DNA from: Spirochaetia bacterium UBA5763
GTDB taxonomy: Bacteria > Spirochaetota > UBA4802 > UBA5550
Reading direction: 5' to 3'
Assembly (NCBI GenBank): GCA_002418835.1
Contig: DIEX01000034.1
Span: 225,926-289,925, forward strand
Length of the DNA stretch: 64,000 nt
How positions within the stretch are numbered: position 1 is the stretch's first letter; the number at the start of each line of letters is the position of its first letter. The position numbers were made by a program, and so were the translations under genes. The notes under the pieces were generated by a model. It had not been told where the DNA came from and ran no database searches. It saw nothing but the letters and a program-made list of their open reading frames with translations. Below, one piece after another: positions 2,366-16,884 of the stretch.

Positions 2366-2466
2366 ATTTGTATGGCCTTAGTGAAGGAGGTCAGGTCCGT
2401 AATTAAACAGTTAAAATTTTTTTACTTGCCATAATCTTACAGAAAAATTAATGTCCAAATCTCTTC

Positions 2467-2516
2467 GGGGATGGAGTTCCCCATTATAACCGCTTCAGAA
2501 AGCTGATGACTCCTGC
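2467..2516 (+). promoter_or_regulatory. Fluoride riboswitch (crcB RNA motif) in the 5' leader of the cation/proton antiporter gene
   Basis: The sequence GGGGAUGGAGUUCCCCAUUAUAACCGCUUCAGAAAGCUGAUGACUCCUGC matches the fluoride aptamer consensus (GGnGAUGGnGUUCnCC...AACCGC...GCUGAUGAnUCCUnC). A plausible sigma70 promoter (TTGCCA-N17-TAATGT) lies just upstream. A following hairpin (CCUGCAUUGC/GCAAGGCAGG) could sequester the aptamer 3' end and act as the expression platform. Confidence 0.85.
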
Positions 2517-2570
2517 ATTGCAATACTTTCGCAAGGCAGGATCTACTTAAATCACTGCCCGGATAAAGTA

Positions 2571-3794
2571 TTGCCAGATATTTATGATGAGGTGACTACT
2601 TTGCTTGAAATGTTTTCTATGGCAGCCGTTTGGCTGGCACTGGCCGTTGTGTCTACAGTACTGGCAAACCGTCTTAAGATTTCCATGGCTCTTATGGAAA
2701 TATGTATTGGTGCAGTGGCAGGATATGCCGCAACCACTTTTATAAGCCCCGATTTTTTCAAAGCCGATTCGGGATGGATTAAGTTCATTGCAGGAACCGG
2801 CGCCGTTCTTCTGACGTTCCTTGCCGGAGCTGAACTTGATTCAGCTTCAATGAAAAGAAAAATCAGTGAAGTCTCAGTTGTGGGGCTCATAGGTTTTCTT
2901 GCGCCATTTATAGGGTGCTCTCTGCTTGCTTATTATATCCTTTCCTGGAATCTGCAGGCCAGCCTTCTTACAGGTATAGCATTGTCCACAACTTCAATGG
3001 CAGTGGTTTATGCAGTAATGCTTGAATATGGATTCAATAAAACTGAATATGGCAAGGGGATACTTGGAGCATGTTTTGTGAATGACCTTGGTACTGTTAT
3101 AGCACTGGGTCTGATCTTTTCACCGTTCACCTATAAAACAGTGGTGTTTATTGTGGTATGCTTAGTTGTATTTTTTGCACTGCCGAAAATGACGGCAAGG
3201 CTTACGAGGATATATGAGAATAACACCGCTGCAATCAGGACTAAATGGATAGTTTTTATTCTCTGCGCCCTGGGAGCCCTCGCGCTCTGGTCCGGGAGTG
3301 AGGCTGTTCTCCCTGCGTATATTGCCGGTATGGTGCTTGCTGACAGTGTAGGTAAAGATGAATCTTTTCTTCACAGGATGCGTACGCTGACAATAGGGTT
3401 TCTTACTCCATTTTATTTTCTACGGGCAGGTTTGCTGGTTTCAATTCCTGCAATTATGGCAGCGCCGATGGTATTTTTTATACTTCTTGCAGGGAAAGTG
3501 GTTTCTAAAATATTCGGGCTTTACCCTGTAATTGGAGTGTTCCGTGAAACAAAAAAAGAGCGCTGGTATTATACCCTTATGATGTCCACAGGGCTTACCT
3601 TTGGATCGATCTCCGCGCTGTTTGGATTAACTCATGGCATAGTTGACAGGGGGCAGTATTCGTTCCTTATTGCCGCTGTTATCGGGAGCGCGGTAGTGCC
3701 TACTATTATCGCGAACCTTGCGTTTCTCCCGTCGCATCTTCTTCACGCGCCTCTTGCTGATGAAGAGCTGCCGCAGCTTGATTTAATTGACTGA
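2571..3794 (+). CDS. Cation:proton antiporter (CPA / Na+/H+ exchanger family) membrane protein
   Basis: The product is polytopic and hydrophobic throughout, with typical Na+/H+ exchanger family sequence features. The true start may be slightly downstream (GAGGTGA-N5-TTG at about 2600). Na+/H+ antiporters are a known gene class under fluoride riboswitch control. Confidence 0.75.
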   Translation: MPDIYDEVTTLLEMFSMAAVWLALAVVSTVLANRLKISMALMEICIGAVAGYAATTFISPDFFKADSGWIKFIAGTGAVLLTFLAGAELDSASMKRKISEVSVVGLIGFLAPFIGCSLLAYYILSWNLQASLLTGIALSTTSMAVVYAVMLEYGFNKTEYGKGILGACFVNDLGTVIALGLIFSPFTYKTVVFIVVCLVVFFALPKMTARLTRIYENNTAAIRTKWIVFILCALGALALWSGSEAVLPAYIAGMVLADSVGKDESFLHRMRTLTIGFLTPFYFLRAGLLVSIPAIMAAPMVFFILLAGKVVSKIFGLYPVIGVFRETKKERWYYTLMMSTGLTFGSISALFGLTHGIVDRGQYSFLIAAVIGSAVVPTIIANLAFLPSHLLHAPLADEELPQLDLID

Positions 3795-3903
3795 TTCATA
3801 CTCCTTCATACCGGTTTTCTGTAGAGAATACCGGTATGACGCAACATCTGCTTTGAAATAATTCTTGCCAAAAATTATCCGTATAATAATATAAACCATC
3901 TTC

Positions 3904-3953
3904 GGGGATGGAGTTCCCCCTTGTAACCGCTTTTAGAAGCTGATGACTCCTGC
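3904..3953 (+). promoter_or_regulatory. Fluoride riboswitch (crcB RNA motif) in the 5' leader of the dynamin-like GTPase gene
   Basis: The sequence GGGGAUGGAGUUCCCCCUUGUAACCGCUUUUAGAAGCUGAUGACUCCUGC is near-identical to the 2467-2516 copy. The loop hairpin shows covariation (GCUUCAGAAAGC versus GCUUUUAGAAGC), and a U-A pair in the downstream stem becomes U-G. A TTGCCA-N16-TAATAT promoter lies upstream. Confidence 0.85.
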
Positions 3954-4042
3954 ATTGCAATATCAACGCGAGGCAGGTTTATCCTGAAAATAAAAAACCG
4001 CGCCGGTATTGCTGAATAAACTTTAAATGCAGGTGAATTATA

Positions 4043-5791
4043 ATGCTCCCGGCAGAATATATTGAAAGAGCAATGGATCTTGTTAAAGATTCCGGAGATA
4101 AATATTGCAGTATACACGATTCCCTTTCAGGCCTTAATGAACGTCTGAATGAGGGGAGGTTCCACCTTGCGGTTCTTGGACAGTTCAAGAGAGGTAAGAG
4201 CACTCTGCTTAATGCGCTACTTGGAGAGGAGCTGCTCCCGGGGGCTATACTCCCTGTAACTGCAATCCCCACATTTATATACTCCGGCGCTGAACATAGG
4301 GTGCACGTCACATTTAACGATAATACTGAAACAGATTTCTCTTCCGGTGATGTATCTGAAATCAACAGATATCTTGATGAGCATGTCTCAGAGGAGAAGA
4401 ACCCTGAGAACACCAGGGGGATTAAGAATGTTGAACTCTATACGCCTGCCCCGGTTCTGCGTAACGGCCTTGTACTCATAGATACACCGGGCATAGGTTC
4501 AACACACAGGCACAACACAGAAGTGACAATGAATTTCCTTGAAGAGTGTGATGCCGCCCTTTTTGTGTTTTCACCTGACCCCCCTGTGACTGAAGCTGAA
4601 CTTGATTTTCTGAAGCAGGTCAGGACCCGCGTTAAGAAGATAATATTTGTGCTGAATAAAGCTGACCTTCTCTCCGAAGAGGAGATTGTTAAAATAAGCG
4701 GTTTTATTAAAAGCGTACTTTATGAAAAGAGCGGTGTAGATCTCTCTGAGGATATCTTCACTCTCTCCGCAAAAAGCGGTCTCAATGCCGCAAAAACCGG
4801 TGATAATGATAAATGGAATCTGTCAGGCATGGACAGGCTCCGCACCTATCTCTCAGGCTTTCTTGTAAAGGAGAAGGGGGAGGTTTTGCTTAAAGCTGTA
4901 TCCTTAAAAGCTGTTAATATTCTCTCGGAGTTTTCCATGCGTCTGCATCTTGAGGCCCGGGCACTGGAGCTCCCTGTTGATGATCTTAAAAGAAGAGCTG
5001 AACTTTTCAGAAAAAAAATTGAAGAGGCAATGACGCGGAGAGAGGAGACCGGGGATATACTTAAAGGGGACAGGAAGAGGCTCCTTGATATACTTGATGT
5101 ACAGTCTAAAAAGCTTCATGAAAGGACTACACTTTATCTGAATGAAATCCTTGATAAGAATATAAAAAGCGGCAGTAAGCTCTCTGAAAACCGTATACGC
5201 GAGGAGTTTGCGCTCTCCATACCGCCATTTTTTGAACATGAATTAAAAGAGGTTTCAAAATACTTCAGTGACGCTGTATCCGAGAGGATGACAGTTCATG
5301 AGAAGAGGGCTGCAGATCTCATTGATGAGGTTAAGTCTGCTGCTGCTGATATTTTTGAGATACCTTATGAACGGTCTGATGAAAAAATAGTACTCATTGA
5401 AAACCGTAAACCCTACTGGGTAAAACATAACTGGAGCGCCTCCTTTATACCTGTGCCTGATGATCTTGTTGACGCGCTTCTCCCCCGGAAGATGCTTATT
5501 AAAAAGATCACCAGGAATATGCAGCGCCTTGCTAAAGACCTCGCAACAGGTAATGTTGAAAACCTCAGCTGGGTTACACTTCAGAACCTTGATGATACTT
5601 TCAGGAAGTTTACAGGTGAATTTGATAACAAGCTGAAAGCGGCTATTGAAGCTACAGAGGGAGCCCTCCTTGAGGCAATGAAGAGGAGCAATGAGCAGGA
5701 AACCGGATCTGCTGCTGAACTGGATGATCTAAAAAAGAGAATTGAATCTGTGACAGAACTGACTTCCGGACTCAAGAGGCATTCACTTTAA
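4043..5791 (+). CDS. Dynamin-family large GTPase (bacterial dynamin-like protein)
   Basis: The N-terminal GTPase carries G1 GQFKRGKST, G3 DTPGIG and G4 NKAD motifs. The C-terminal ~350 aa are helical. An AGGTGA RBS sits 6 nt before the ATG. Confidence 0.75.
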   Translation: MLPAEYIERAMDLVKDSGDKYCSIHDSLSGLNERLNEGRFHLAVLGQFKRGKSTLLNALLGEELLPGAILPVTAIPTFIYSGAEHRVHVTFNDNTETDFSSGDVSEINRYLDEHVSEEKNPENTRGIKNVELYTPAPVLRNGLVLIDTPGIGSTHRHNTEVTMNFLEECDAALFVFSPDPPVTEAELDFLKQVRTRVKKIIFVLNKADLLSEEEIVKISGFIKSVLYEKSGVDLSEDIFTLSAKSGLNAAKTGDNDKWNLSGMDRLRTYLSGFLVKEKGEVLLKAVSLKAVNILSEFSMRLHLEARALELPVDDLKRRAELFRKKIEEAMTRREETGDILKGDRKRLLDILDVQSKKLHERTTLYLNEILDKNIKSGSKLSENRIREEFALSIPPFFEHELKEVSKYFSDAVSERMTVHEKRAADLIDEVKSAAADIFEIPYERSDEKIVLIENRKPYWVKHNWSASFIPVPDDLVDALLPRKMLIKKITRNMQRLAKDLATGNVENLSWVTLQNLDDTFRKFTGEFDNKLKAAIEATEGALLEAMKRSNEQETGSAAELDDLKKRIESVTELTSGLKRHSL

Positions 5792-5812
5792 ATCTGAACC
5801 AGGGAAATCATT

Positions 5813-6226
5813 ATGATGGAACCTACAGTAGAAGAGATACGTGCAGCGGCATTTAAAAACCTTCACCTTATTTATGTGAAGAGGTTTGACCGTACAAGCT
5901 ACCGTATAGTTAAAACTGAAGCTGAAGGTACACCTGTGCTTGTTGAGTATATCTCTTTCCATTATAAAACCACAAAGATCCGGGTTAAGGATATAGGGAG
6001 CAATATTATCTACCTTGTCAATGCCGTGCAGTACAGGAAGACATGGCTCAGGGATCTGATTAAAAAAGATAAAACTCTTGAGGCTAAAATAAAAGAGTGG
6101 TATCCATTTTTATGGGGCGATATCAGTGATGAAGATAGAATCAGGTATAAGGATATATTAAGGACTTTAAAACAGTACGCAGATCTGGAAAAGCCCCTTG
6201 AGAAGAATGTTGTATATAAAGACTGA
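5813..6226 (+). CDS. Hypothetical protein co-transcribed with the dynamin-like GTPase
   Basis: The 137 aa ORF starts 21 nt after the GTPase stop and has no recognisable motifs. Confidence 0.45.
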   Translation: MMEPTVEEIRAAAFKNLHLIYVKRFDRTSYRIVKTEAEGTPVLVEYISFHYKTTKIRVKDIGSNIIYLVNAVQYRKTWLRDLIKKDKTLEAKIKEWYPFLWGDISDEDRIRYKDILRTLKQYADLEKPLEKNVVYKD

Positions 6227-6236
6227 TGATTTTCCG

Positions 6237-7733
6237 TTACTCTTTGAATATCTCCCTGTAAAGGTCTTCACCGAAAGCAGTGGGGAGGGGTTCACCTTCA
6301 ATGATCCTGTAACTACGCCTGCCGTCCTCCTCTCTCTCTGCCCTGAGGAAAAGTGTTCCGGATAATCCGCTCTGCCTGATTGAACAGGCGAAATCATAAA
6401 GATGTGTGACAAAGAAAACACGGATATTTTTTTCAGCAAGGGCCCTGGTTATCTGCCTTGCTATTTCAGAACCCTCCCTTTCGTTAGTTGATGAAAAAGA
6501 TTCGTTGAAAAGGATCATTGAATCTTTTTTTATATTCAGGATAATTTCATCCATTCTTAAAAGCTCCTCATCAAGCCTGCCGCTCTTCATGGCGGGGTCT
6601 TCCTCCCGTCTGAAATGGGTAAAGAGCGCATTACAGAGCCCCGCGTTATATGCGTCTGCAGGGACAAACATTCCGCACTGCATCATAAGCTGTGCTATCC
6701 CTATGCTCCTGAGGAAAGTTGATTTACCCCCCTGATTCGCCCCGGTAATTATCACAGGGTTTCTGCTGTCACCAGTCATATCATTCCCTGTTACACTCCG
6801 TTTCATAGTTAGTGAAAGAGAAATATCATATAGAGACTTGAATGAAAAAATTTTCTCTTCTGACAAGTGAGGGGAGGGGAATGTAAAGCTGCAATTCAAA
6901 CCGGAGAGATGTTCCGCCAGGTTCAGTGAACATATATAGAAAGAGAGTTCTATCCTTAAATTTTTAAAAAAAGAATCTATGTGATCCGCTGATACCGCAA
7001 GGGCATTGGCTGTCTCATTAAGTGCTGCATCTTTAATTGATGTCAAAGCCCTGAAGCCGCTCTCATCGCGGGGCGGAATAGAAAATGAATATGCTTCATC
7101 TTCTCTGAATATGATTCTTTTAAGGTCATATTTTTTTTTCCTGAAAGGCTTCCTGAGCATATAGCTCCCCCCTTCATTCCCTTTCCCCGGAGCTGCGCTT
7201 ATATGCATCCCTTTGTAAAATTTGAGCCTTTTAAGATGTGTTTCAATCCCGTTTAAATAGTTGTGATCCAGTTCACTCCGCACCATATTAAAGAATCTGG
7301 TCATACCTTCAGATTGGAATTTATGGCGATGCAGCTCTTCAACGATTTTAAGCTCTCTGAGAAGAGTTACAAACATACTCAGTTTATCTACTGCTGTATT
7401 AAGGATACTTCCGGGTGAGTTGTTGAATATGCTGCTCCAGAGCCTCTTCTTTCTATCCTCTGATTCAACTGTTGTCTGATAGAGCTCCCTTATTACCGTT
7501 GGGTTGGCAAGTGCGTCCCGCAGAATATCCTGGCGATACCTGATTGTTTCAATGCTGTTTTCAAAACATGATAGCAGGGTATGTTTTGCTGTATTTAGCA
7601 GAAAAGGATCTCCAGTTGACATGGCATTAAAAAGTACATTAAGTTCAAGGTCCTGTATTAAAAATTCAGAGTTAAGAGGGGGGGCGGCCTGAATATCAAA
7701 ATCATGGTCTTTGAACATGAGTAATGGTTTCAT
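6237..7733 (-). CDS. MutS domain V (ABC-type ATPase) family protein, MutS2-like and without an Smr domain
   Basis: It carries a Walker A motif (GANQGGKSTFLRSIG) and a downstream D-loop/Walker B-like stretch (ILFNESFSSTN) typical of MutS domain V. It overlaps the upstream gene by 4 nt. Confidence 0.7.
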   Translation of the reverse strand: MKPLLMFKDHDFDIQAAPPLNSEFLIQDLELNVLFNAMSTGDPFLLNTAKHTLLSCFENSIETIRYRQDILRDALANPTVIRELYQTTVESEDRKKRLWSSIFNNSPGSILNTAVDKLSMFVTLLRELKIVEELHRHKFQSEGMTRFFNMVRSELDHNYLNGIETHLKRLKFYKGMHISAAPGKGNEGGSYMLRKPFRKKKYDLKRIIFREDEAYSFSIPPRDESGFRALTSIKDAALNETANALAVSADHIDSFFKNLRIELSFYICSLNLAEHLSGLNCSFTFPSPHLSEEKIFSFKSLYDISLSLTMKRSVTGNDMTGDSRNPVIITGANQGGKSTFLRSIGIAQLMMQCGMFVPADAYNAGLCNALFTHFRREEDPAMKSGRLDEELLRMDEIILNIKKDSMILFNESFSSTNEREGSEIARQITRALAEKNIRVFFVTHLYDFACSIRQSGLSGTLFLRAEREEDGRRSYRIIEGEPLPTAFGEDLYREIFKE

Positions 7734-9277
7734 GTTTTAATCCGTTCAATAAGAGAATTATATGTGAGGCCGTATTTCTCCGAAATTGACATGGCATAGG
7801 CAAGGCCGTCTGCGGGTCTTCTTGATATTTTAAATGTACGGATTTCCGGCGCATCAGGATCTACGCTGCTCACCATGCTCACCGTTGATTCACTGTATTC
7901 TGAAAGTTCATCAACAAATGTTATCCATACACAGATGAGATCCAGTGAGTTTATCCTCTCCATGATCTTTCCGCTTAAGAATACCGCATCATGAAGTGTT
8001 GTGGATGTGAATATTTCATTCATAATAATTATGCTGCGGGTAGTCGCCCGGCTGAGAAAATCTTCGATCCTTATAAGGTCATCCTGAAGTTTTCCACGCA
8101 GATCACTTATATTCTCCCCCTTCTCAAAATGAGTGAATATATCGTCAAAGAGATAAAGGCGCGCTTCTCTCCCCGGTACAGTGAGGCCCAGTGATCCGAT
8201 ATAATGTATCTGCCCGAAGTCACGGGCAAATGTTGTCTTTCCACCCTGGTTGGGCCCTGATACCACTATTATGCGCTCTTTACCTGTAAGATAGAAATCA
8301 TTGCATACAACAGGCATATTCTCTTTACTCAGCTTATGGGCAAGAGCGAGATCAAACCCGGCATGACAGTGAATGTTTTTTGAGGAAGCGGAAAACTCCG
8401 GATAGCAGAAAGCGAAGCCTGTATTCTTCATCTTCGCAATATAATCGAGCCAGGAGATATAAAACTGGATCTCCCTGGCGAAACTGATTATCCCGCTGTC
8501 CATGAAATCATTGTTATTGATTGAAAATTCATGCAGGTTGTAGAATACTCCAGGCCGGAGCTTTGCCACGCAATCCATTATCCTGGCTTCAATATGGTTC
8601 ATCCCTAAGGGAATAGTAACTTTTGACAGGTATTTACGGCTTTCGCCACGGGTAAACCTGGAGAAGAGTTCCTTTATCTCGGTACTATAGTCCTTTTCAC
8701 CTTTATACTTGCGGACAGTTACCTTTTCATTTTTTATCTCAATTAAATACTGTATTGAAGATATATCGCTTTTTAATTTAAGAGCTTCGGAATGAATCGA
8801 TGTAAAGTCAGGAGATTGAACATAGTGTGTCAGATACTCCCTGAATTTCAGCAGGCCATTTGATTTTAAATCAGCACGCAGCAGATCCTTTTCAAGTGAT
8901 ATTACTGCGTCACAATAAACTATAACTGCTTCAAGAAACCACCCCTCTCTGTGGAGCATAAAATTAAGTTTTTCAATCATACGGATATAGCGGCGAACAG
9001 TGGATATACTGTGGGCAAAGGATTTTAAATCCTCAAAGAGAGTACCATGCTCTATATCCTTTGCAGCCTCCTGCCTATATAGAATTGTTTCAATGTCGGG
9101 AGCAGGGGTATAAAAAAAAGGTTTAAGATTGTACTCCTCTTTCCCTGAAATTACAGAGTTTACAATCCGGTCAAGGTTAAGATCAGTGAAGCATGGAGGT
9201 TCTTTGCTGATCTTATTATTATCTTCAAAATTATCTTTGTATAAAATACTGCTGTAAAACATTACTGCTGTACTCAT
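7730..9277 (-). CDS. MutS domain V family ATPase, paralogue of the 6237-7733 gene
   Basis: Walker A motif GPNQGGKTTFARDFG. The architecture matches its downstream neighbour, and the two genes are translationally coupled. Confidence 0.7.
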   Translation of the reverse strand: MSTAVMFYSSILYKDNFEDNNKISKEPPCFTDLNLDRIVNSVISGKEEYNLKPFFYTPAPDIETILYRQEAAKDIEHGTLFEDLKSFAHSISTVRRYIRMIEKLNFMLHREGWFLEAVIVYCDAVISLEKDLLRADLKSNGLLKFREYLTHYVQSPDFTSIHSEALKLKSDISSIQYLIEIKNEKVTVRKYKGEKDYSTEIKELFSRFTRGESRKYLSKVTIPLGMNHIEARIMDCVAKLRPGVFYNLHEFSINNNDFMDSGIISFAREIQFYISWLDYIAKMKNTGFAFCYPEFSASSKNIHCHAGFDLALAHKLSKENMPVVCNDFYLTGKERIIVVSGPNQGGKTTFARDFGQIHYIGSLGLTVPGREARLYLFDDIFTHFEKGENISDLRGKLQDDLIRIEDFLSRATTRSIIIMNEIFTSTTLHDAVFLSGKIMERINSLDLICVWITFVDELSEYSESTVSMVSSVDPDAPEIRTFKISRRPADGLAYAMSISEKYGLTYNSLIERIKT

Positions 9278-9282
9278 TTTTT

Positions 9283-9507
9283 CTATCTTCTATTGAATAA
9301 GAAATAAACAATGAGCCCCGCGAAAACAGCCATTAAAAATCCGCCTGCTGCAATCTCCAGCGACATCCTTATTCTTTTCTTCCTTGTAATTTCCGGAAAA
9401 TGACTATAACCTTCATAAGCATTTACATAGGCAATGACCCCTCCAAGTATTCCGAAGAAGAGACCTATAACCACCAGCATCTTTATAAGGCTATAATCAT
9501 TTTCCAT
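9283..9507 (-). CDS. Small two-TM membrane protein (hypothetical)
   Basis: The 74 aa product has two hydrophobic helices. It lies between the enolase and MutS-like genes in the same orientation. Confidence 0.4.
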   Translation of the reverse strand: MENDYSLIKMLVVIGLFFGILGGVIAYVNAYEGYSHFPEITRKKRIRMSLEIAAGGFLMAVFAGLIVYFLFNRR

Positions 9508-9513
9508 CTGATT

Positions 9514-10791
9514 TTATCCGGCGAAGGGATTTACAAATCTTGCGGCGCTGCCCAGTTCGCTCTCAATTTCAATGAGACGGTTATATTTGGCAATACGCTC
9601 GCTCCTGCATGCTGAACCTGTTTTGATCTGGCCGCCACCCATTGCTACGGCAAAATCAGCCATGAAAGTATCTTCCGTTTCACCAGATCTGTGTGATATA
9701 ACGTAGGTCCAACCTGCCTGACGACAGAGTTTTATAGCTTCGATTGATTCGGTAACTGTACCTATCTGGTTAAGCTTTATAAGAACTGAATTTGTTGATT
9801 TCTCGTTAATACCGCGCTTAATGAATTTTGTATTAGTTACAAATATATCATCGCCCACTATCTGGGTTTTATCTCCAAGAATTGCAGTGTGTTCTTTGAA
9901 GCCTGCCCAGTCATTCTCATCAAGTCCGTCCTCAAGGGATACTATATGATACTTATCAATCCAGTCTTTATAAATGGCTGTCATCTCAGCGCTGCTCTTT
10001 TTCCCCTGACCGGATTTTGCAAGATTGTACGCCCCGTTTTCATAAAATGAACTTGCTGCCGGATCAAGGGCAAGAGCTATATCCTTTCCCGGTTTGTAAC
10101 CTGCTGCAATGATTGCCTCTATAATTACTTCGCAGGCTTCATCATTACTTTTAAGATTTGGAGCAAATCCCCCTTCGTCGCCGACTCCGGTGGAGTATCC
10201 CTTCCTGCCGAGGATCTTTTTAAGAGCATGAAATGTTTCAGCTCCATATCTCAAAGCTTCGGCGAAAGTCGGGGCACCTATGGGCATTACCATGAATTCC
10301 TGAAAATCCACGCTGTTGTCTGCATGTTTCCCGCCGTTTAATATATTCATCATTGGAACAGGTATTCTGTAATTTCCGGTCTCTCCGAGATAGGCATAAA
10401 GGGGGAGCCCTGCTGCCGCTGAAGCAGCCCTTGCAGCTGCCATTGATACGCCGAGTATGGCATTCGCTCCTAATTTACCTTTATTCTCTGTACCATCCAG
10501 ATCTATTAGCATCTGATCTATCTCGCCCTGTGCTGAAGGGTCCATCCCGATGATCTTTGAAGCAATAATATTATTTACGTTTGAAACAGCTTTCAATACA
10601 CCCTTGCCGTCATAACGCTTTTTGTCACCGTCGCGGAGTTCAACTGCTTCATTCTCACCTGTAGATGCACCAGATGGAACTGATGATGACACTGTAATTC
10701 CATTATCAAGTGACATTATTACTCTTACCGTTGGATTGCCGCGTGAATCGAGTATTTCAAGCGCTTTTACTGATTTTATTTTCTCTTTCAT
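9514..10791 (-). CDS. eno: Enolase (phosphopyruvate hydratase)
   Basis: The N-terminus is unmistakably enolase ([16 protein letters not shown]...[17 protein letters not shown]), the length is 425 aa, and a strong RBS (GGAGGAG) is present. Confidence 0.95.
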
Positions 10792-10906
10792 ATCTCCTCC
10801 TGAAAAATCTGATTTATTATTAAATTTAAAAATTTCTTACCCTGAAGCAAATGAAATTACCTGATCATTTATACCTGCGATTAATCAAAGTTTCTCTCAT
10901 ATTCTG

Positions 10907-11011
10907 TCAAAATCGGGAGATGCGATAATCAGCTATCAGATAGTATAATGGTCCGGATTGTATTAATAGAATTGTATCGAATAGAATGGAAAAACAGCTG
11001 GATTTATCCAT
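10907..11011 (-). CDS. Candidate 34 aa small ORF (MDKSSCFSILFDTILLIQSGPLYYLIADYRISRF) immediately downstream of the minus-strand fluoride riboswitch
   Basis: A GGAGG RBS sits 5 nt before the ATG. That RBS can pair with the 3' side of the aptamer (AUGACUCCUGCAUAU / AUAUGGAGGCGUCAU), which suggests a translational expression platform. The ORF is below the 60 aa cut-off of the ORF track. Confidence 0.25.
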   Translation of the reverse strand: MDKSSCFSILFDTILLIQSGPLYYLIADYRISRF

Positions 11012-11040
11012 GACGCCTCCATATCAGTTGATATTAATAT

Positions 11041-11085
11041 GCAGGAGTCATTAGCACAGGGCAGTTTATGGTGAACTCCATCACC
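11041..11085 (-). promoter_or_regulatory. Fluoride riboswitch (crcB RNA motif) on the minus strand, ahead of the enolase / MutS-like operon
   Basis: The reverse complement reads GGUGAUGGAGUUCACCAUAAACUGCCCUGUGCUAAUGACUCCUGC. This matches the Thermotoga and Bacillus fluoride aptamers (AAACUGCCCUG and GCUAAUGACUCCU). Confidence 0.85.
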
Positions 11086-11256
11086 TGATTTCAGGGTAGA
11101 AGTCTGATCAATATATGTCAATAAAAAATTGATGATATCCCTGTCTTGCCGGAAGTTGGGAATTAGTAGCTGATAAATACAAAATAGTGCATTTCGCAGC
11201 AGCCGGAAAATAAAAATCAGTAGTTACAAAAACATAATAAAAGTATCTTATAACCT

Positions 11257-12570
11257 ATGAGAAAAAAAATGGAAGAAACAGGGCTGTTAAGGCTCAATTA
11301 TCCGTCACAGATATACCTTGAGACTACCACAAGATGTAACCTTACCTGTGAAATGTGTGTTAAACAGAGCAGCAGTTGCGGAATTGCTGAAGGGGACTTT
11401 GATTCTGCAATGTTTTCTTCAATCGATTCAGTACTCCCTCATATTAATACTCTTATACTTAGCGGAATAGGGGAACCTCTATTGCACCCGCAACTTGAAG
11501 AACTAATCAGTTATGCTTCGGAGCGAATGAAAACAGGTGCAGATATCGGTTTTCAGACAAACGGAATGCTTCTGACCCGTGAAAAAGCTGAGTCCCTAAT
11601 TAATGCGGGACTGAATCTTATCTGTGTTTCAATGGATGCATCCACTTCCGATACCTTCAGGGATTTGAGAGCAGGAGGGGAACTCTCAGATGCTGAAAAC
11701 GCAATTTCAATTTTAAAAGAAGCAGGTATTTTATTAAAACGTAAAGTCAGGATAGGGATTGAATTTGTAATTACTAAAAGCAATCTCAGACATCTTGTAC
11801 CGGCACTTAAAATTGCTGCTCAGAAAGGAGTGGATTTTGCTATAGTCTCACACCTTATCCCCTATGATGAAAGATTAGTCGGGGGAGCTGTGTATGACCG
11901 GAATATTGATAAAGCTGTTGAATTCTTTGAAAGGGAACTTTATGAAGCTGATAGAGAAGGAATTGATATAGCAAAGTACTTTGATATCCGCTGGAAATTT
12001 ATTCACACACCGGAAGAGGAGAGAATAATTAAAGCAGTCGAAAAAATGACAGCAATGGCACAATCTGAGGGTTTTCATTTAAACCTGCGGAGTCTTATGG
12101 ATAGAGATATAAAATTAATACATGATGTTGGAACAGTTTTTAAAGAGGCTGAAGCTTTTGCCGCAGCTGCGGGGATTGAGTTGAGCCTCCCTGCTTCAAC
12201 GCCGAGAGGGGATAAAAGATGCGATTTTATTGAATCAGGGAGCCTTTTCATTTCATGGAATGGCGATGTTCATCCCTGCCACTTTCTCTGGCATAAATTT
12301 CAGTGTTATATATCGGGGTGGAAGAAGTTTGTTACACCTGTCTCTTTCGGGAATCTTAAAGAACAGAGTGTCTCAGATATATGGAACAGTGATGATTATA
12401 AAAAATTCAGGGAGTCGGTTGCAAAGTATGATTACCCTGTATGCTCAAACTGCTCCCTTGCCCCCTGTGATTATATCTACTCAGAAACATTTGAACAGGA
12501 CTGCTATACAAACACAATCCCATGTTGCGACTGCCAGTGGTGTTTAGGGCTTTTTCAGTGTCTTAAATAA
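11257..12570 (+). CDS. Radical SAM protein with a C-terminal Cys-rich SPASM/twitch-like domain
   Basis: The N-terminus carries a CxxxCxxC motif (TRCNLTCEMC). The C-terminus is cysteine-rich (CSNCSLAPCDY...CCDCQWCLGLFQC). It is located at the head of the arsenic/thiol island. Confidence 0.7.
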   Translation: MRKKMEETGLLRLNYPSQIYLETTTRCNLTCEMCVKQSSSCGIAEGDFDSAMFSSIDSVLPHINTLILSGIGEPLLHPQLEELISYASERMKTGADIGFQTNGMLLTREKAESLINAGLNLICVSMDASTSDTFRDLRAGGELSDAENAISILKEAGILLKRKVRIGIEFVITKSNLRHLVPALKIAAQKGVDFAIVSHLIPYDERLVGGAVYDRNIDKAVEFFERELYEADREGIDIAKYFDIRWKFIHTPEEERIIKAVEKMTAMAQSEGFHLNLRSLMDRDIKLIHDVGTVFKEAEAFAAAAGIELSLPASTPRGDKRCDFIESGSLFISWNGDVHPCHFLWHKFQCYISGWKKFVTPVSFGNLKEQSVSDIWNSDDYKKFRESVAKYDYPVCSNCSLAPCDYIYSETFEQDCYTNTIPCCDCQWCLGLFQCLK

Positions 12571-12592
12571 AAACTTGACTTTTATTATATCC

Positions 12593-12608
12593 TTGGCAAT
12601 ATTGCCAA
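12593..12608. promoter_or_regulatory. Perfect 16 bp palindrome TTGGCAATATTGCCAA. It is a candidate ArsR operator overlapping the arsR promoter.
   Basis: Perfect dyad symmetry 18 nt upstream of the arsR start. A related dyad is present at 13064-13079. Confidence 0.5.
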
Positions 12609-12625
12609 ATAAGAAAGGATAATTT

Positions 12626-12970
12626 ATGAATCAGAATGAAGTAAAACTTTATGAAGCAAGGGCGAATATAATAAAGGCTTTAGCTCATCCAAGCAGGCTC
12701 TATATTGTCGATATGCTCAATAAACAGCCCAGGGCTGTGGGTGAACTTACTGAAATGATAGGTGCGGATACATCAACTGTTTCTAAACATCTCAGTGTAC
12801 TGAAAAATGCAGGTATTGTTGTAGATGAGAAACGGGGGACTGCGGTTATCTATACTTTGAAATGTCCCTGTATACTTGATTTTATCGGATGTATTGAAGA
12901 GGTTATTGAAAGCAATACAAAAACCCAGGTTGAAATTCTGAGCTGCTGTAAAACCAGAGCAGCCAGATAA
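12626..12970 (+). CDS. arsR: ArsR/SmtB-family metalloregulator
   Basis: Winged-HTH sequence (LAHPSRLYIVDMLNKQPRAVGELTEMIGADTSTVSKHLSVLKNAGIV) with a Cys-rich C-terminus (CPC, CIE, SCC). Confidence 0.85.
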   Translation: MNQNEVKLYEARANIIKALAHPSRLYIVDMLNKQPRAVGELTEMIGADTSTVSKHLSVLKNAGIVVDEKRGTAVIYTLKCPCILDFIGCIEEVIESNTKTQVEILSCCKTRAAR

Positions 12971-13063
12971 AAAAGGAATTAATCAATGGTTAGAAAACGC
13001 AATATATGCAGATGCTGGTGGAATGGCTGGTGAAATATTTTCTCACTCTTTTTTAGGATTTAC

Positions 13064-13079
13064 TTGGCATCTTTGCCAA
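13064..13079. promoter_or_regulatory. Palindrome TTGGCATCTTTGCCAA. It is a second candidate ArsR operator, located ahead of the permease gene.
   Basis: It has the same half-sites (TTGGCA / TGCCAA) as 12593-12608 and lies 25 nt upstream of the 13105 start. Confidence 0.45.
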
Positions 13080-13104
13080 TAAGCAAAATTTGGAGGAGTA
13101 GTAA

Positions 13105-14403
13105 ATGTTCTGGAAAGATGAATGGAAACCTCTTGCTATAATCGGCGGATTTTTTATCGCCCTGTATTATATGCCTGTTGGAACAGAGAGGTTCGATAAC
13201 GCGATTTTTGAGGCCTTATATTTAACGAAGTGGTACGCGCAGGAGCATGTTCTTCTCTGCCTTATACCTGCTTTTTTTATTGCGGGAGCCATAGGCGTGT
13301 TCGTGCGCCAGGAGGCAGTTATGAAGTACCTGGGGCCTGCTGCCAATAAGCTCGTTGCTTATGGAGTAGGTTCTGTTTCAGGTTCAATACTTGCAGTATG
13401 TTCATGCACGGTGCTGCCGCTTTTTTCAGGGATCTACCGTATGGGTGCAGGACTGGGGCCTGCCATTGCTTTTCTTTATTCAGGACCTGCGATCAATGTA
13501 CTTGCAATCATACTTACTGCAAGAGTCATTGGTATGGATATAGGTATTGCCCGTGCAGTTGGCGCTATTCTGTTCAGCGTTGTTATAGGTGCCATTATGC
13601 ACTTTATATTCAGACATGAGGAGATTGCCAAAGTAAAGGCTGCCATGTATATGCCTGAGCCTGAGGTTGCAAGGCCGCTATGGAAAGATATTATATACTT
13701 CGGTTCAATGGTGGCGATTCTTGTTTTAGCCAACTGGGGTAAATCATCAGATACATCCGGGTTCTGGTATATAATGTATGCATTCAAGTGGTGGTTTACA
13801 TCAGCAGCAGCAATAGTTTTTGCTACAGTGATTGTATTATGGTATGGGGTCAAACCGTGGAAGATGGCTCTTGTTATTATCCCGGCTGCCGCGCTTGCTT
13901 TTGTATTCCCTCATGAGCCTGTAATCCCCTTTGCCGCAGGTACAATCGGGCTTTCGGTGATTACAAGTACAGATAAAGGTGAGCCTGGCGAGTGGTTCGG
14001 ATCAACATGGGGATTCGCAAAACAGATCACTCCGCTTCTTCTCGGAGGTGTACTTGTGTCTGGCTTTCTTCTGGGGAGGCCGGGACACGAGGGGATAATT
14101 CCCGCTGCATGGGTAAGCAGTCTGGTTGGAGGTAACTCCTTCGGGGCAAACTTCTTCTCTTCAATAGTCGGGGCCTTTATGTACTTTGCAACATTAACAG
14201 AGGTGCCCATTGTTCAGGGTCTCCTTGGCAGCGGTATGGGGAAGGGGCCTGCGTTGGCATTGCTGCTTGCAGGGCCAGCGCTCTCTCTGCCGAACATGCT
14301 TGTCATTAACAGCTACATCGGGCCGAAGAAAACTTTTGTCTACTGTACCCTGGTAGTTATTATGGCTACACTGAGCGGTATGATCTTCGGGATGTTTTTT
14401 TAA
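13105..14403 (+). CDS. UPF0718/DUF318-family permease, of the type found in two-Cys permease/thioredoxin clusters
   Basis: The 432 aa product is polytopic and contains a CSC motif (SILAVCSCTVLPLF). It sits in the ArsR-permease-thioredoxin gene order that is common in anaerobes. Confidence 0.65.
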   Translation: MFWKDEWKPLAIIGGFFIALYYMPVGTERFDNAIFEALYLTKWYAQEHVLLCLIPAFFIAGAIGVFVRQEAVMKYLGPAANKLVAYGVGSVSGSILAVCSCTVLPLFSGIYRMGAGLGPAIAFLYSGPAINVLAIILTARVIGMDIGIARAVGAILFSVVIGAIMHFIFRHEEIAKVKAAMYMPEPEVARPLWKDIIYFGSMVAILVLANWGKSSDTSGFWYIMYAFKWWFTSAAAIVFATVIVLWYGVKPWKMALVIIPAAALAFVFPHEPVIPFAAGTIGLSVITSTDKGEPGEWFGSTWGFAKQITPLLLGGVLVSGFLLGRPGHEGIIPAAWVSSLVGGNSFGANFFSSIVGAFMYFATLTEVPIVQGLLGSGMGKGPALALLLAGPALSLPNMLVINSYIGPKKTFVYCTLVVIMATLSGMIFGMFF

Positions 14404-14445
14404 TAATGTTTAAGAATGAAAATTAATTTAATAAGGAGGCTTTAG

Positions 14446-14874
14446 ATGAATTACAAAAAAAACAGAATAGTGGTTTTTTTGTTAATGTCTGTTCTTATGT
14501 CAGCGGTGTCTCTTCAGGCTCAACAGGGTAAAATGAGACAAAACTCCATGAACAGAAATTACAATCCTGCGACTGTTGTAACGATCAGCGGTACAATAAC
14601 AGATATTTTATCTGTTAATACCTGGGGTATGCACATAAAGATGAAGACATCCGACGGTGTTACGGGCGTTCACCTTGGGCCTGAGTGGTTTTTAAAAAAC
14701 AAGATAACACTGGCAGCCGGTGATATTGTCACGGCTGTGGGATCAAAAGTCAATATGAATGGCGAGAATGTCATTATAGCAAAAACTATTACCAAAGGGA
14801 CATCAACTGTTCAGCTTAGAAATGACAACGGGGTGGCTTTATGGGCAGGCTCCGGAAAAGGTAAAAACAGGTAA
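14446..14874 (+). CDS. Secreted hypothetical protein
   Basis: N-terminal signal peptide (MNYKKNRIVVFLLMSVLMSAVSLQAQ) and no recognisable catalytic motif. Confidence 0.45.
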   Translation: MNYKKNRIVVFLLMSVLMSAVSLQAQQGKMRQNSMNRNYNPATVVTISGTITDILSVNTWGMHIKMKTSDGVTGVHLGPEWFLKNKITLAAGDIVTAVGSKVNMNGENVIIAKTITKGTSTVQLRNDNGVALWAGSGKGKNR

Positions 14875-14901
14875 TAATTGATTGAATAATGGAGGCAAAA
14901 A

Positions 14902-15141
14902 ATGTATAAAATTGAAGTATTAGGAACAGGGTGCGCGAAGTGCAACAAACTTGAAGAGACAGCAAGGAAAGCTGCTGACGAGCTTGGAATTGAGTATGAA
15001 GTGGTTAAAGTGAAGGATATCAATGACATCATGAATTACGGGGTCATGGTTACACCTGCACTTGTTGTTAATGGTGTTGTGAAGGTTGCGGGCAAAGTCC
15101 CAGCGATTGAAGAAGTAAAAAAGATGATCGGAGGAAAATAA
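14902..15141 (+). CDS. Redox-active disulfide protein 2-like small thioredoxin-fold protein
   Basis: The 79 aa product carries a CxxC motif (GCAKC). Sequence and length match the small thioredoxin-like proteins that accompany UPF0718 permeases. Confidence 0.75.
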   Translation: MYKIEVLGTGCAKCNKLEETARKAADELGIEYEVVKVKDINDIMNYGVMVTPALVVNGVVKVAGKVPAIEEVKKMIGGK

Positions 15142-15142
15142 A

Positions 15143-15562
15143 ATGGGTGATTGTGCGTGCAATTCAGGTACAAAAATTATTTATTCATGTTCAGGTGCAG
15201 CAGACGTTGGTGAAATTGCTGACAGGGCAGTGCGGGCGCTTAAAAGAGAGGGATTTGCCCAGGGGTCATGTATTGCCGCAGTTGGTGCCGGTTTGTCCGG
15301 ATATGTTCAGTCCGCTAAAGGTGCAGATGTTAATATAGTTGTCGATGGATGCCCTGTGGGCTGTGCGAGAAAAATAATGGAGAACATAGGTGTAACCCCT
15401 GTTTCTTATGTTGTTACAGAGATGGGTTTTGTGAAGGGGAGTTCACCTGCCAACCCGGAAACAATTGAAACTGTTTACAGGAATATCAAAGAAGGTAAAA
15501 CCGGAGAGCAGAAGTGTACTCCAGCGGCAGGTTGCGGTTGCGGATGCGGCGGAAGCTGCTGA
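15143..15562 (+). CDS. DGC-domain putative metal-binding protein
   Basis: A conserved VVDGCPVGC motif and a Cys-rich tail (CGCGCGGSC). Confidence 0.6.
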   Translation: MGDCACNSGTKIIYSCSGAADVGEIADRAVRALKREGFAQGSCIAAVGAGLSGYVQSAKGADVNIVVDGCPVGCARKIMENIGVTPVSYVVTEMGFVKGSSPANPETIETVYRNIKEGKTGEQKCTPAAGCGCGCGGSC

Positions 15563-15658
15563 TAAATTTTAAAGAGAAATGGAACCATTCCTCCATATCC
15601 GTGGTCTAATTACAGACTGCGGATTGTTTTTGCAAAAAATAGAATTCAAGGGTGAGAA

Positions 15659-16177
15659 TTGATGAAGAGTATGAGAAAAAAAATTATGCTGCTGCTTATT
15701 GCTGTATTTTTTATCGCGGGTGTGCCGTATCTAAAAACACCGTCTAACTGCGGGGCAGTGATACCGCTTGCCTTTACAGGCGCGATCTTCGGATGCGGCG
15801 GGGATAAAGAAGCTGCGAAGCAGAACGAGGAGGCTGACAGGTCTTCTGCTGTTGCTGCTGAGACTGAAAGTTCAACAACTGAAAAGAAAGGTGAGCTTAA
15901 AGTTACTTTTGTTGAACTCGGTTCAGTGAACTGTATACCGTGCAGAATGATGCAGCCTGTAATGCAGGATGTTGAAAAAAAATATCCCGGACAGGTTAAA
16001 ATTGTATTCCACGATGTCTGGACTGATCAGGGGAGAGCTGAAGGTGCGAAATATCGTATCAGGGTAATACCGACACAGGTTTTTCTTGATAAAAACGGAA
16101 AGGAGTATTTCAGGCATGAGGGGTTTTTCCCATTTGAAGAGGTTGACAGGGTTCTGAAGCAGAAGGGTGTAAAATAA
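15659..16177 (+). CDS. Secreted thioredoxin-family thiol:disulfide oxidoreductase
   Basis: Signal peptide or TM anchor, then a CIPC active-site motif in a thioredoxin fold. Confidence 0.7.
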   Translation: MMKSMRKKIMLLLIAVFFIAGVPYLKTPSNCGAVIPLAFTGAIFGCGGDKEAAKQNEEADRSSAVAAETESSTTEKKGELKVTFVELGSVNCIPCRMMQPVMQDVEKKYPGQVKIVFHDVWTDQGRAEGAKYRIRVIPTQVFLDKNGKEYFRHEGFFPFEEVDRVLKQKGVK

Positions 16178-16884
16178 TGTTCATGGATTTTTTTGTTGCA
16201 CTGTCATCCATGCTTTCATCCTCACCGGGGATTGCCATAACTGGTTCTTTCCTCTGGGGGATAGCAAGCATTCTGCTATCACCCTGCCATCTTGCAAGCA
16301 TTCCTCTTATTGTGGGCTATATAGACTCACAGGGAGAGATAAAGACAGGACGTGCTGCGCTGATCTCCACTCTTTTCTCTGCGGGTATTCTCATTACAAT
16401 TGCTGTAATAGGGATTCTCACAGGGCTTGCGGGGCGTATGATGGGGGACATCGGGCAATACGGAAATATCATTGTTGCGGTGCTCATGGTTGTTATCGGG
16501 CTTTACCTTCTCGGCATAATTCCGCTCCCTTTCCTTGACAGCGGGATTAACCAGCCGGGGATGAAAAAGAAAGGCCTGCTTGCCGCTTTTTTACTTGGCC
16601 TATTCTTCGGCCTTGCCCTTGGGCCATGTACATTCGCGTATATGGCGCCCATGCTTGGTGTTGCCTTTACCGTTGCTGCATCAAACATTATGTACGCTGT
16701 TGCGCTTGTGGCTGCCTATGCAGTGGGGCACTGTCTGGTTATTATTATTGCGGGGACTTCTACTGAGCTTGTGAACCACCTGCTTAAATGGAATGAAAAT
16801 TCCAGAGGGGCCATGCTCATTAAAAAAGGGTGCGGTGTGCTGGTTGTTGTTGCAGGTGTATATATGCTGGTGAGCGCACTGTAG
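16177..16884 (+). CDS. ccdA: CcdA/DsbD-family thiol-disulfide transporter (cytochrome c biogenesis protein-like)
   Basis: Polytopic product with the two conserved Cys of the CcdA family (LSPCHLASIPL and GPCTFAYMAPML). It overlaps the preceding thioredoxin gene (ATGA). Confidence 0.75.
   Translation: MFMDFFVALSSMLSSSPGIAITGSFLWGIASILLSPCHLASIPLIVGYIDSQGEIKTGRAALISTLFSAGILITIAVIGILTGLAGRMMGDIGQYGNIIVAVLMVVIGLYLLGIIPLPFLDSGINQPGMKKKGLLAAFLLGLFFGLALGPCTFAYMAPMLGVAFTVAASNIMYAVALVAAYAVGHCLVIIIAGTSTELVNHLLKWNENSRGAMLIKKGCGVLVVVAGVYMLVSAL

Follow-up and report, generated by a model that had tools for sequence, protein, structure and literature searches.

A predicted fluoride-response island in a Spirochaetia bacterium and the linkage of its dynamin-like GTPase family to fluoride riboswitches

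The fluoride riboswitch (crcB motif, RF01734; Weinberg 2010, Baker 2012) has a known set of cargo genes, which includes mutS-like genes (Weinberg 2010, PMC2864571) as well as antiporters and enolase (2024 review, PMC11139923). Here we describe a stretch of 64,000 nucleotides (hereafter the window) from Spirochaetia bacterium UBA5763 (GCA_002418835.1, contig DIEX01000034.1, positions 225,926 to 289,925), in which three such riboswitches head three transcription units between positions 2400 and 11100, encoding an antiporter, a dynamin-like protein (DLP), and an enolase together with two MutS-like ATPases. In our view, this region is likely to be a fluoride-response island, with the DLP as a dedicated member that probably acts as an effector of membrane remodelling or repair. 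An initial annotation of the same DNA had listed antiporters, enolase and MutS-like genes as known cargo classes, and the cited papers bear this out. The riboswitches, antiporter, enolase and MutS-like genes of the island are ordinary, known components, and the DLP is its noteworthy element.

In the aptamer itself there is no difference from the described class (Weinberg 2010, Baker 2012): the window copies agree with it in score, in the pseudoknot strands GAUGGAGU/ACUCCU and in the covariation of helices P1 and P2, and they likewise lie in 5′ leaders before known cargo (cation/H+ antiporter, enolase, mutS-like). The difference lies in the leaders, which have no canonical U-tract terminator and of which two of three are duplicated. 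The MutS-related cargo described for the crcB motif (Weinberg 2010) resembles that of the window in that an ABC-type ATPase with MutS domain V follows the fluoride aptamer, whereas the window genes are tandem paralogs of ~500 aa lacking mismatch-binding, connector and Smr domains, and share their operon with the enolase and a 74-aa membrane protein. The common-cargo list of the 2024 review does not include a DLP (PMC11139923). No link between a dynamin or DLP and the fluoride riboswitch was found in the searchable literature, although the gene table of Baker et al. 2012 may already list one; dynamin is not mentioned in the first 200 of the 438 supplementary files of Weinberg 2010. The initial annotation had regarded the DLP as not being an established fluoride-riboswitch cargo, in agreement with the lack of any discussion of it as cargo in the searchable literature.

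Among described DLPs, IniA and DynA are induced by stress and act on the membrane. The best structural match of the window DLP is the Mycobacterium IniA (6j72/6j73, TM-score 0.55-0.57), which is similar to it in size (~560-600 aa) and in having a GTPase domain and a helical stalk with a tip loop, despite an identity of only 15-16%. IniA is induced by chemical stress, and the window DLP, located behind a fluoride riboswitch, may be likened to it in this respect. However, IniA is encoded in the iniBAC operon, responds to cell-wall drugs through protein regulators and has IniC as its partner, whereas the window DLP is a singleton under predicted RNA-level control by fluoride, and its family, unlike IniA, is found in anaerobes and archaea. 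With BDLP1 of Nostoc punctiforme (2j68/2j69), which belongs to the mitofusin/BDLP branch, the window DLP has in common a G(x)xKRGKST-type P-loop and the DTPG and NKxD motifs, and its helical bundle and non-helical tip are comparable to the neck/trunk helical bundle and paddle of BDLP1 (E 1e-19). The identity between the two is 18-19%, the window DLP is ~100 aa shorter, and the tip motif PYWVxHxWxSSFxPxP is specific to its family.

Linkage of the dynamin-like protein family to fluoride aptamers

Relatives of the window DLP number in the thousands and are ~590 aa long. The initial annotation had suggested a survey of other genomes for DLPs behind RF01734 riboswitches, which we carried out on 80 DLP loci from GTDB species-representative genomes, which scored highest among at least 548 confirmed relatives. 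These loci are distributed over Bacillota, Thermodesulfobacteriota, Spirochaetota, Planctomycetota, Acidobacteriota, Nitrospirota, Chloroflexota, Omnitrophota, Latescibacterota and other phyla, and include archaeal Methanomicrobiales. With a strict regular expression (regex), 35 of the 80 loci already showed an aptamer upstream of their DLP, and the aptamers found in this way were used to build our own covariance model. With this model a same-strand aptamer was detected at most 600 nt upstream of the DLP match in 63 loci, and in a further seven at 775-3300 nt upstream, with an antiporter, an enolase, a MutS pair or a small open reading frame (ORF) in between. The curated Rfam model, used at its gathering threshold, independently confirmed such an upstream aptamer for 18 out of 18 loci outside the regex seed, six of them archaeal. 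In the closest relative that we found (locus L001), a single aptamer heads an operon formed by the antiporter and the DLP. Overall, ~88% of the sampled family members are located behind a fluoride aptamer, and the sequences suggest that this family is almost always, across both bacteria and archaea, the cargo of a fluoride riboswitch.

The genes that surround the DLP in the window also recur elsewhere. Within 6 kb of the DLP (tblastn, the same 80 loci), enolase was found in 26 loci, antiporter homologs in 17, and a tandem MutS pair with ~50% identity in five (L012, L037, L048, L050 and L072). Enolase is the immediate same-strand neighbour of the DLP in 12 loci (downstream in seven and upstream in five), and the antiporter in 10, while neither of the two is present within this distance in over half of the loci; CrcB is near the DLP in only 6 of the 80. 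As judged from these sequence matches, the DLP, enolase, antiporter and MutS pair recur together across phyla, and the cluster of the window is not a one-off. In addition, the enolase and antiporter of the window are 75-82% and 74-84% identical, respectively, to copies adjacent to DLPs in other phyla (Leptospira, Terriglobia and Omnitrophota; L002, L027, L030, L033, L001 and L024). These identities are unusually high, which suggests that both belong to horizontally spread clades specific to fluoride islands.

We also took a census that was blind to the cargo, by scanning metagenome contigs for the exact aptamer pattern. This resulted in 120 stretches, with 112 aptamers followed by sufficient downstream sequence. 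The first gene behind these was CrcB-like in 44 cases and an FHL membrane subunit in 9, two classes assigned from short motifs and therefore approximate, whereas the counts obtained by tblastn were 23 for the CPA2 antiporter family, 8 for the DLP, 3 for enolase and 2 for MutS-like proteins. The DLP is thus a commoner first gene in this sample than either enolase or MutS. Since 63 plus seven of the 80 loci are linked to an aptamer, known cargo adjoins the DLP, and it was recovered in 8 of the 112 cases of a cargo-blind census, we take the DLP to be a dedicated member of the fluoride regulon and not an incidental passenger.

At the protein level, an alignment of 22 family sequences shows invariant G1 (GQFKRGKS), G3 (DTPG) and G4 (NKxD) motifs, with G46, K52 and S53, D147, T148, P149 and G150, and N205, K206 and D208 as invariant residues, and a conserved aromatic tip motif (given above). 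The AlphaFold (AF2) model (pLDDT 83.4) has a GTPase domain, a long helical stalk (residues 263-551) and a non-helical tip (439-474), which we infer from the model to face or contact the membrane. A Foldseek search against the PDB gave IniA (6j72, E 1.5e-20) and BDLP (2j69) as top matches, followed by Cj-DLP, SynDLP and mitofusins, with identities of 15-19%. We considered whether the protein belongs to one of the NCBIfam subfamilies, but every cutoff was missed, for DynA (78.6 bits, cutoff 1600), LeoA/HP0731 (29.3 bits, cutoff 325) and CrfC (26.3 bits, cutoff 1146). On the basis of its motifs and predicted fold, we regard the window DLP as a genuine BDLP/IniA-type dynamin-like protein, in a separate subfamily of its own. 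The 120 best relatives, each above 475 bits, all come from anaerobic bacteria and Methanomicrobia.

A paired or tandem arrangement, as in DynA, IniA/IniC and Cj-DLP1/2, was also considered and discarded; only one of the 80 loci has another DLP-like gene close by. One metagenome-assembled genome (Spirochaetota Uz-U4-13) carries two paralogous DLPs on separate contigs (L005 and L034), each with its own aptamer ~100 nt upstream.

Fluoride aptamers and leaders of the window

The whole window was searched with cmscan against Rfam 15 at the gathering threshold (34 bits for RF01734). Exactly three riboswitch matches were obtained, all of them to RF01734 and covering model positions 1-64 of 64 (Table 1), which places three full-length fluoride aptamers, at 53-56 bits, where the initial annotation had predicted them. 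The elements that it had described as invariant, GAUGGAGUUC and AUGACUCCU, are present in all three alignments, as are both strands of the pseudoknot, the GAUGGNGU loop and the ACUCC tail. Aptamer 3 differs from the other two in having its own P1 (GGUG/CACC) and a shorter P2, and its P1 represents a compensatory change within the window relative to the GGGG/CCCC of copies 1 and 2. A compensatory change had also been proposed for the P2 hairpin, but the difference between GCUUcagaAAGC and GCUUuuagAAGC is confined to the loop; copies 1 and 2 share an unchanged GCUU/AAGC stem, and therefore that argument fails.

Covariation was instead evaluated at the family level, using the seven pairs of helices P1 and P2 in 47 aptamers, drawn both from the window and from related loci. 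In this sample 97% of the P1/P2 cells are paired, versus 86% in shuffles, and in slid-control alignments at most 64% of cells are paired. Double-sided changes are present in five of the seven pairs, and the covariation score of 0.332 (0.125 in shuffles) was reached by none of 500 shuffles. The alignment thus indicates that the P1 and P2 helices of this aptamer family are maintained by covariation. In three other loci (L004:3966-4026 on the minus strand, L029:7766-7825 and L012:2619-2694), loop GGAGC and tail GGCUCC replace GGAGU and GACUCC, which is a compensatory change inside the pseudoknot itself. We also considered a distinct GUCC (versus GUUC) subtype for the DLP-linked aptamers, but the signal present in the regex subset was gone when all covariance-model hits were included (27/33 versus 11/14, Fisher p = 1.0).

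The alignment of leaders 1 and 2 is unbroken from the TTGCCA hexamer, across the aptamer, the hairpin behind it (CCUGCAUUGC...GC[A/G]AGGCAGG) and a second conserved element, GUAUUGC, to the AGGUGA ribosome-binding site, and both leaders match the single antiporter leader of L001. The similar TTGCCA -35 hexamers that had been noted for the two plus-strand copies are indeed there, and the promoter-like element of leader 1 aligns with those of leader 2 and L001. The homology of the two leaders from promoter to Shine-Dalgarno sequence means that leader 2 is a local duplicate of leader 1 and not an independent occurrence; the three matches had initially been taken as independent, whereas copies 1 and 2 are paralogs that go back to duplication of an entire leader.

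In each of the three leaders, folding predicts a hairpin that overlaps the 3′ tail of the aptamer and would compete with it (Table 1). Competing hairpin 1 is kept in leader 2 and in L001. In the full-length minimum-free-energy fold of leader 2, CCUGCAUU pairs instead with AAUGCAGG at the Shine-Dalgarno sequence (4027-4034). Competing hairpin 3 has 15 pairs and sequesters the whole 3′ pseudoknot strand of aptamer 3, AUGACUCCUGCAUAU. We consider these tail-overlapping hairpins as candidate OFF-state elements: fluoride would lock the tail into the pseudoknot, and therefore a hairpin capturing the tail is the architecture expected of an ON switch. The 243-nt enolase leader also contains, between aptamer 3 and the enolase start, a perfect TTGACA hexamer (10905-10910, minus strand), which might be a basal promoter independent of the riboswitch, although its -10 region is weak.

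Gene content of the island and its surroundings

Gene calls were checked with Pfam, NCBIfam and an external gene call, and the resulting features are listed in Table 1. They form three riboswitch-led units, two of them co-directional and one convergent: unit 1 with the CPA2-type antiporter, unit 2 with the DLP followed by a 137-aa ORF, and unit 3 with the enolase, a 74-aa protein predicted to have two transmembrane (TM) segments, and two MutS_V ATPases. The initial annotation had seen two convergent operons; the convergent arrangement holds, but the units number three, and the 74-aa gene between the enolase and the first MutS-like gene had been overlooked.

Table 1. Features of the island, with positions given in window coordinates.
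Feature	Positions	Strand	Evidence and remarks
Promoter-like element, leader 1	2426-2454	+	TTGCCA (2426-2431), 17 nt spacer, TAATGT; consensus match only
Aptamer 1 (RF01734)	2458-2522	+	56.0 bits, E 7.5e-13; 63.7 bits with our own covariance model R1
Competing hairpin 1 (candidate), CCUGCAUUGC/GCAAGGCAGG	2512-2540	+	Fold, z -1.9 (sub-fragment); 5′ arm overlaps aptamer 3′ tail; no clear U-tract
CPA2-type cation/proton antiporter, 397 aa	2601-3794	+	PF00999 Na_H_Exchanger 119.8 bits vs cutoff 26.2; TTG start (ORF lister: 2571)
Promoter-like element, leader 2	3865-3892	+	TTGCCA (3865-3870), 16 nt spacer, TAATAT; promoter scan and alignment to leader 1
Aptamer 2 (RF01734)	3895-3959	+	55.5 bits, E 1.1e-12
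Competing hairpin 2 (candidate), CCUGCAUUGC/GCGAGGCAGG	3949-3977	+	Fold, z -2.5; then UUUAU
BDLP/IniA-type dynamin-like GTPase, 582 aa	4043-5791	+	PF00350 Dynamin_N 106.2 bits vs cutoff 27
137-aa ORF	5813-6226	+	No Pfam, NCBIfam or PDB match
MutS-domain-V ATPase B, 498 aa, second of paralogous pair	6237-7733	-	MutS_V 77.5 bits, sole domain; Walker A GANQGGKST
MutS-domain-V ATPase A, 510 aa by gene call	7730-9262 (ORF lister: to 9277)	-	MutS_V 58.7 bits, sole domain
Predicted two-TM protein, 74 aa	9283-9507	-	Gene call; no Pfam or NCBIfam match
Enolase, 425 aa	9514-10791	-	TIGR01060 651.6 bits vs cutoff 300; PF03952 Enolase_N and PF00113 Enolase_C
Competing hairpin 3 (candidate), AUGAC.UCC.GCAUAUU/...AUAUG.GGA.GUCAU	11010-11051	-	Fold -21.6 kcal/mol, z -3.67, 0/200 shuffles as stable
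Aptamer 3 (RF01734)	11035-11094	-	53.2 bits, E 6.5e-12; enolase ATG 243 nt downstream

The antiporter does not reach the cutoff of NCBIfam TIGR00932 (109 bits, cutoff 238), and its domain match makes it a clear member of the Na_H_Exchanger/CPA2 superfamily, whereas the enolase is, by its family and domain matches, canonical. The 137-aa ORF, which the initial annotation had coupled to the DLP, was considered as a conserved partner and rejected: by tblastn it is present in only one of the 80 loci (L001, 41%), on the opposite strand, and is thus lineage-specific.

The two MutS-like ATPases share 26% identity across the ATPase domain and both have a Walker A motif. For ATPase A, the PDB matches are confined to residues ~290-507 and correspond to the ATPase domains of MutS, Msh3 and MutS2, and neither a mismatch-binding domain I nor an Smr domain was detected with Pfam in the pair. 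Both are well below the NCBIfam cutoffs for mutS1 (63 bits, cutoff 642) and mutS2 (50-65 bits, cutoff 400), and in sequence they are MutS-related ATPases that are neither MutS1 nor MutS2. They also match, below the cutoff, the NCBIfam family KamC, the reactivase ATPase of lysine 5,6-aminomutase (81 and 53 bits), and truncated MutS-like ATPases of this kind may have proteins and not DNA as their target, for instance when reactivating an enzyme.

Homologs of the 74-aa protein (48-66% identity) are found just upstream of the DLP aptamer in four loci of Spirochaetota/Leptospira (L005, L022, L034 and L054), and this protein may be a further, unrecognised member of fluoride islands. Several other proteins were observed near fluoride aptamers in the surveyed loci, namely a prenyltransferase-like alpha-alpha toroid protein as first gene in Methanomicrobiales (aptamers L049:379-440 and L036:4507-4566), a Cys-rich ORF of 145-154 aa between aptamer and DLP (L003:2296-2358 and L017:378-443), a 335-aa DUF6062-like coiled-coil protein behind the aptamer and ahead of enolase and DLP (L040:3408-3475 and L057:3502-3568), a zinc-ribbon and HEAT-repeat protein as first gene (L010:9049-9111 and L144), and a small HAD-like protein, also as first gene (L060:5165-5226).

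A tblastn search of the window with six diverse CrcB sequences yielded no CrcB, and no Voltage_CLC domain was seen among its multi-TM ORFs, in line with the absence of a crcB/Fluc or CLC-F exporter reported initially. Composition gives no island signal, with a GC content of 0.38-0.45 across 1-24 kb. The upstream flank (1-2365) carries an MmeI/Eco57I-type restriction-modification gene, a DUF559 endonuclease and an ASCH-like ORF, and the downstream flank (11257-16200) a radical-SAM/SPASM protein, an ArsR-type regulator, an ArsP permease, thioredoxins and a DGC-domain protein, which sets the island among genes for defence and for toxic-ion or thiol stress.

Possible roles of the dynamin-like protein in the fluoride response

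Following the mechanism of the riboswitch class, Mg2+-bound F- would lock the pseudoknot of the GAUGGAGU loop with the 3′ tail ACUCCU, and the locked tail would be kept out of the competing hairpin, switching expression on, whereas in the OFF state transcription would terminate or the ribosome-binding site would be masked. The DLP induced in this way would take part in membrane remodelling or repair, fission/fusion or septal stabilisation, by analogy with the stress-induced IniA and DynA, alongside the antiporter (pH homeostasis) and the enolase (resupply of the fluoride-inhibited enzyme). By the same analogy, a role in membrane remodelling, repair or maintenance is the most likely one for the DLP, and it fits the reported effects of fluoride, which raises the expression of membrane-integrity genes and brings about autolysis as well as septation defects (PMC11139923).

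Several points weigh against a fluoride-response island with a dedicated membrane effector. Ten of the 80 DLP loci have no aptamer detectable with the covariance model, some of them being at contig edges. Relatives more distant than the best 80 were sampled solely via the metagenome scan, where the DLPs show 30-41% identity, and the CrcB and FHL classes of that census are approximate, as mentioned above. Folding of the leaders, proposed in the initial annotation, did yield tail-overlapping hairpins in all three, but a strict terminator script found no canonical intrinsic terminator with a U-tract in any of them, and among 41 DLP leaders elsewhere the same script detected an intrinsic terminator in only 9; with so few canonical terminators, the expression platform may be transcriptional or translational. 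Finally, the membrane-repair role is drawn solely from fold similarity, at 15-19% identity to IniA/BDLP, and nothing in the DLP sequence ties such a role to fluoride chemistry.

Among other explanations, the DLP and the MutS-like ATPases could, as suggested in the initial annotation, be spare or decoy versions of P-loop NTPases that are sensitive to fluoride, over-produced so as to make up for or titrate inhibition by metal-fluoride or by Mg sequestration, as for enolase and pyrophosphatase. Making more of an enzyme that fluoride inhibits is an accepted response (PMC11139923), fluoride disrupts the Mg-ATP-dependent assembly and activity of ClpX, with over-expression of ClpX/ClpC rescuing the cells (PMC12700350), and the GTPase site of the DLP is fully canonical and presumably sensitive to fluoride. 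We nevertheless consider this explanation unlikely. The riboswitch leads ~88% of the sampled DLP family, which therefore looks like a fluoride-only protein and not the second copy of a housekeeping GTPase, so that this near-exclusive linkage favours a dedicated effector over a spare copy. Moreover, a second DLP-like gene is nearby in just one of the 80 loci, and we observed no sequence feature suggestive of a resistance or decoy role.

It is also conceivable, but in our opinion improbable, that the GTPase cycle of the DLP family, as a dedicated fluoride-defence effector, is itself gated by fluoride, with a GDP-Mg/Al-fluoride transition-state lock driving its assembly. If so, fluoride would act twice, by inducing the gene through the RNA and by switching the DLP into a membrane-protective scaffold.

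The neighbouring genes raise the question of whether the DLP is a physical partner of the clustered proteins, for example by scaffolding or positioning the enolase or the antiporter at the membrane. The immediate same-strand adjacency of enolase (12 loci) and of the antiporter (10 loci), and the presence of enolase within 6 kb in 26 of the 80, would agree with such a partnership; however, over half of the DLP loci have neither gene within that distance, and shared regulation and co-transfer explain the co-location equally well. We consider a physical partnership very improbable. Lastly, the promoter, aptamer and hairpin of leader 2 nearly repeat those of leader 1, but the idea that the riboswitch of the window DLP is a mere by-product of this duplication, and the DLP an ordinary membrane GTPase unrelated to fluoride, is scarcely credible and strongly disfavoured, given that in L001, the closest relative, the DLP is already within the aptamer-led antiporter operon, and that in 63 of the 80 loci, from many phyla and from archaea, the DLP is preceded by an aptamer that has diverged independently.

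To our knowledge, the roles and inducing signals of bacterial and archaeal DLPs are mostly unknown. The family described here, which ranges from Bacillota and Thermodesulfobacteriota to Leptospira and methanogens, has a simple predicted chemical inducer, fluoride, that would be read by a well-understood RNA switch. With a defined inducer and wide conservation, the function of these proteins is therefore directly testable. As first gene behind the aptamer in the metagenome sample, the DLP outranks enolase and MutS, which are textbook cargo, and membrane dynamics may belong to the core fluoride-stress response, beside export, pH homeostasis and enzyme resupply.

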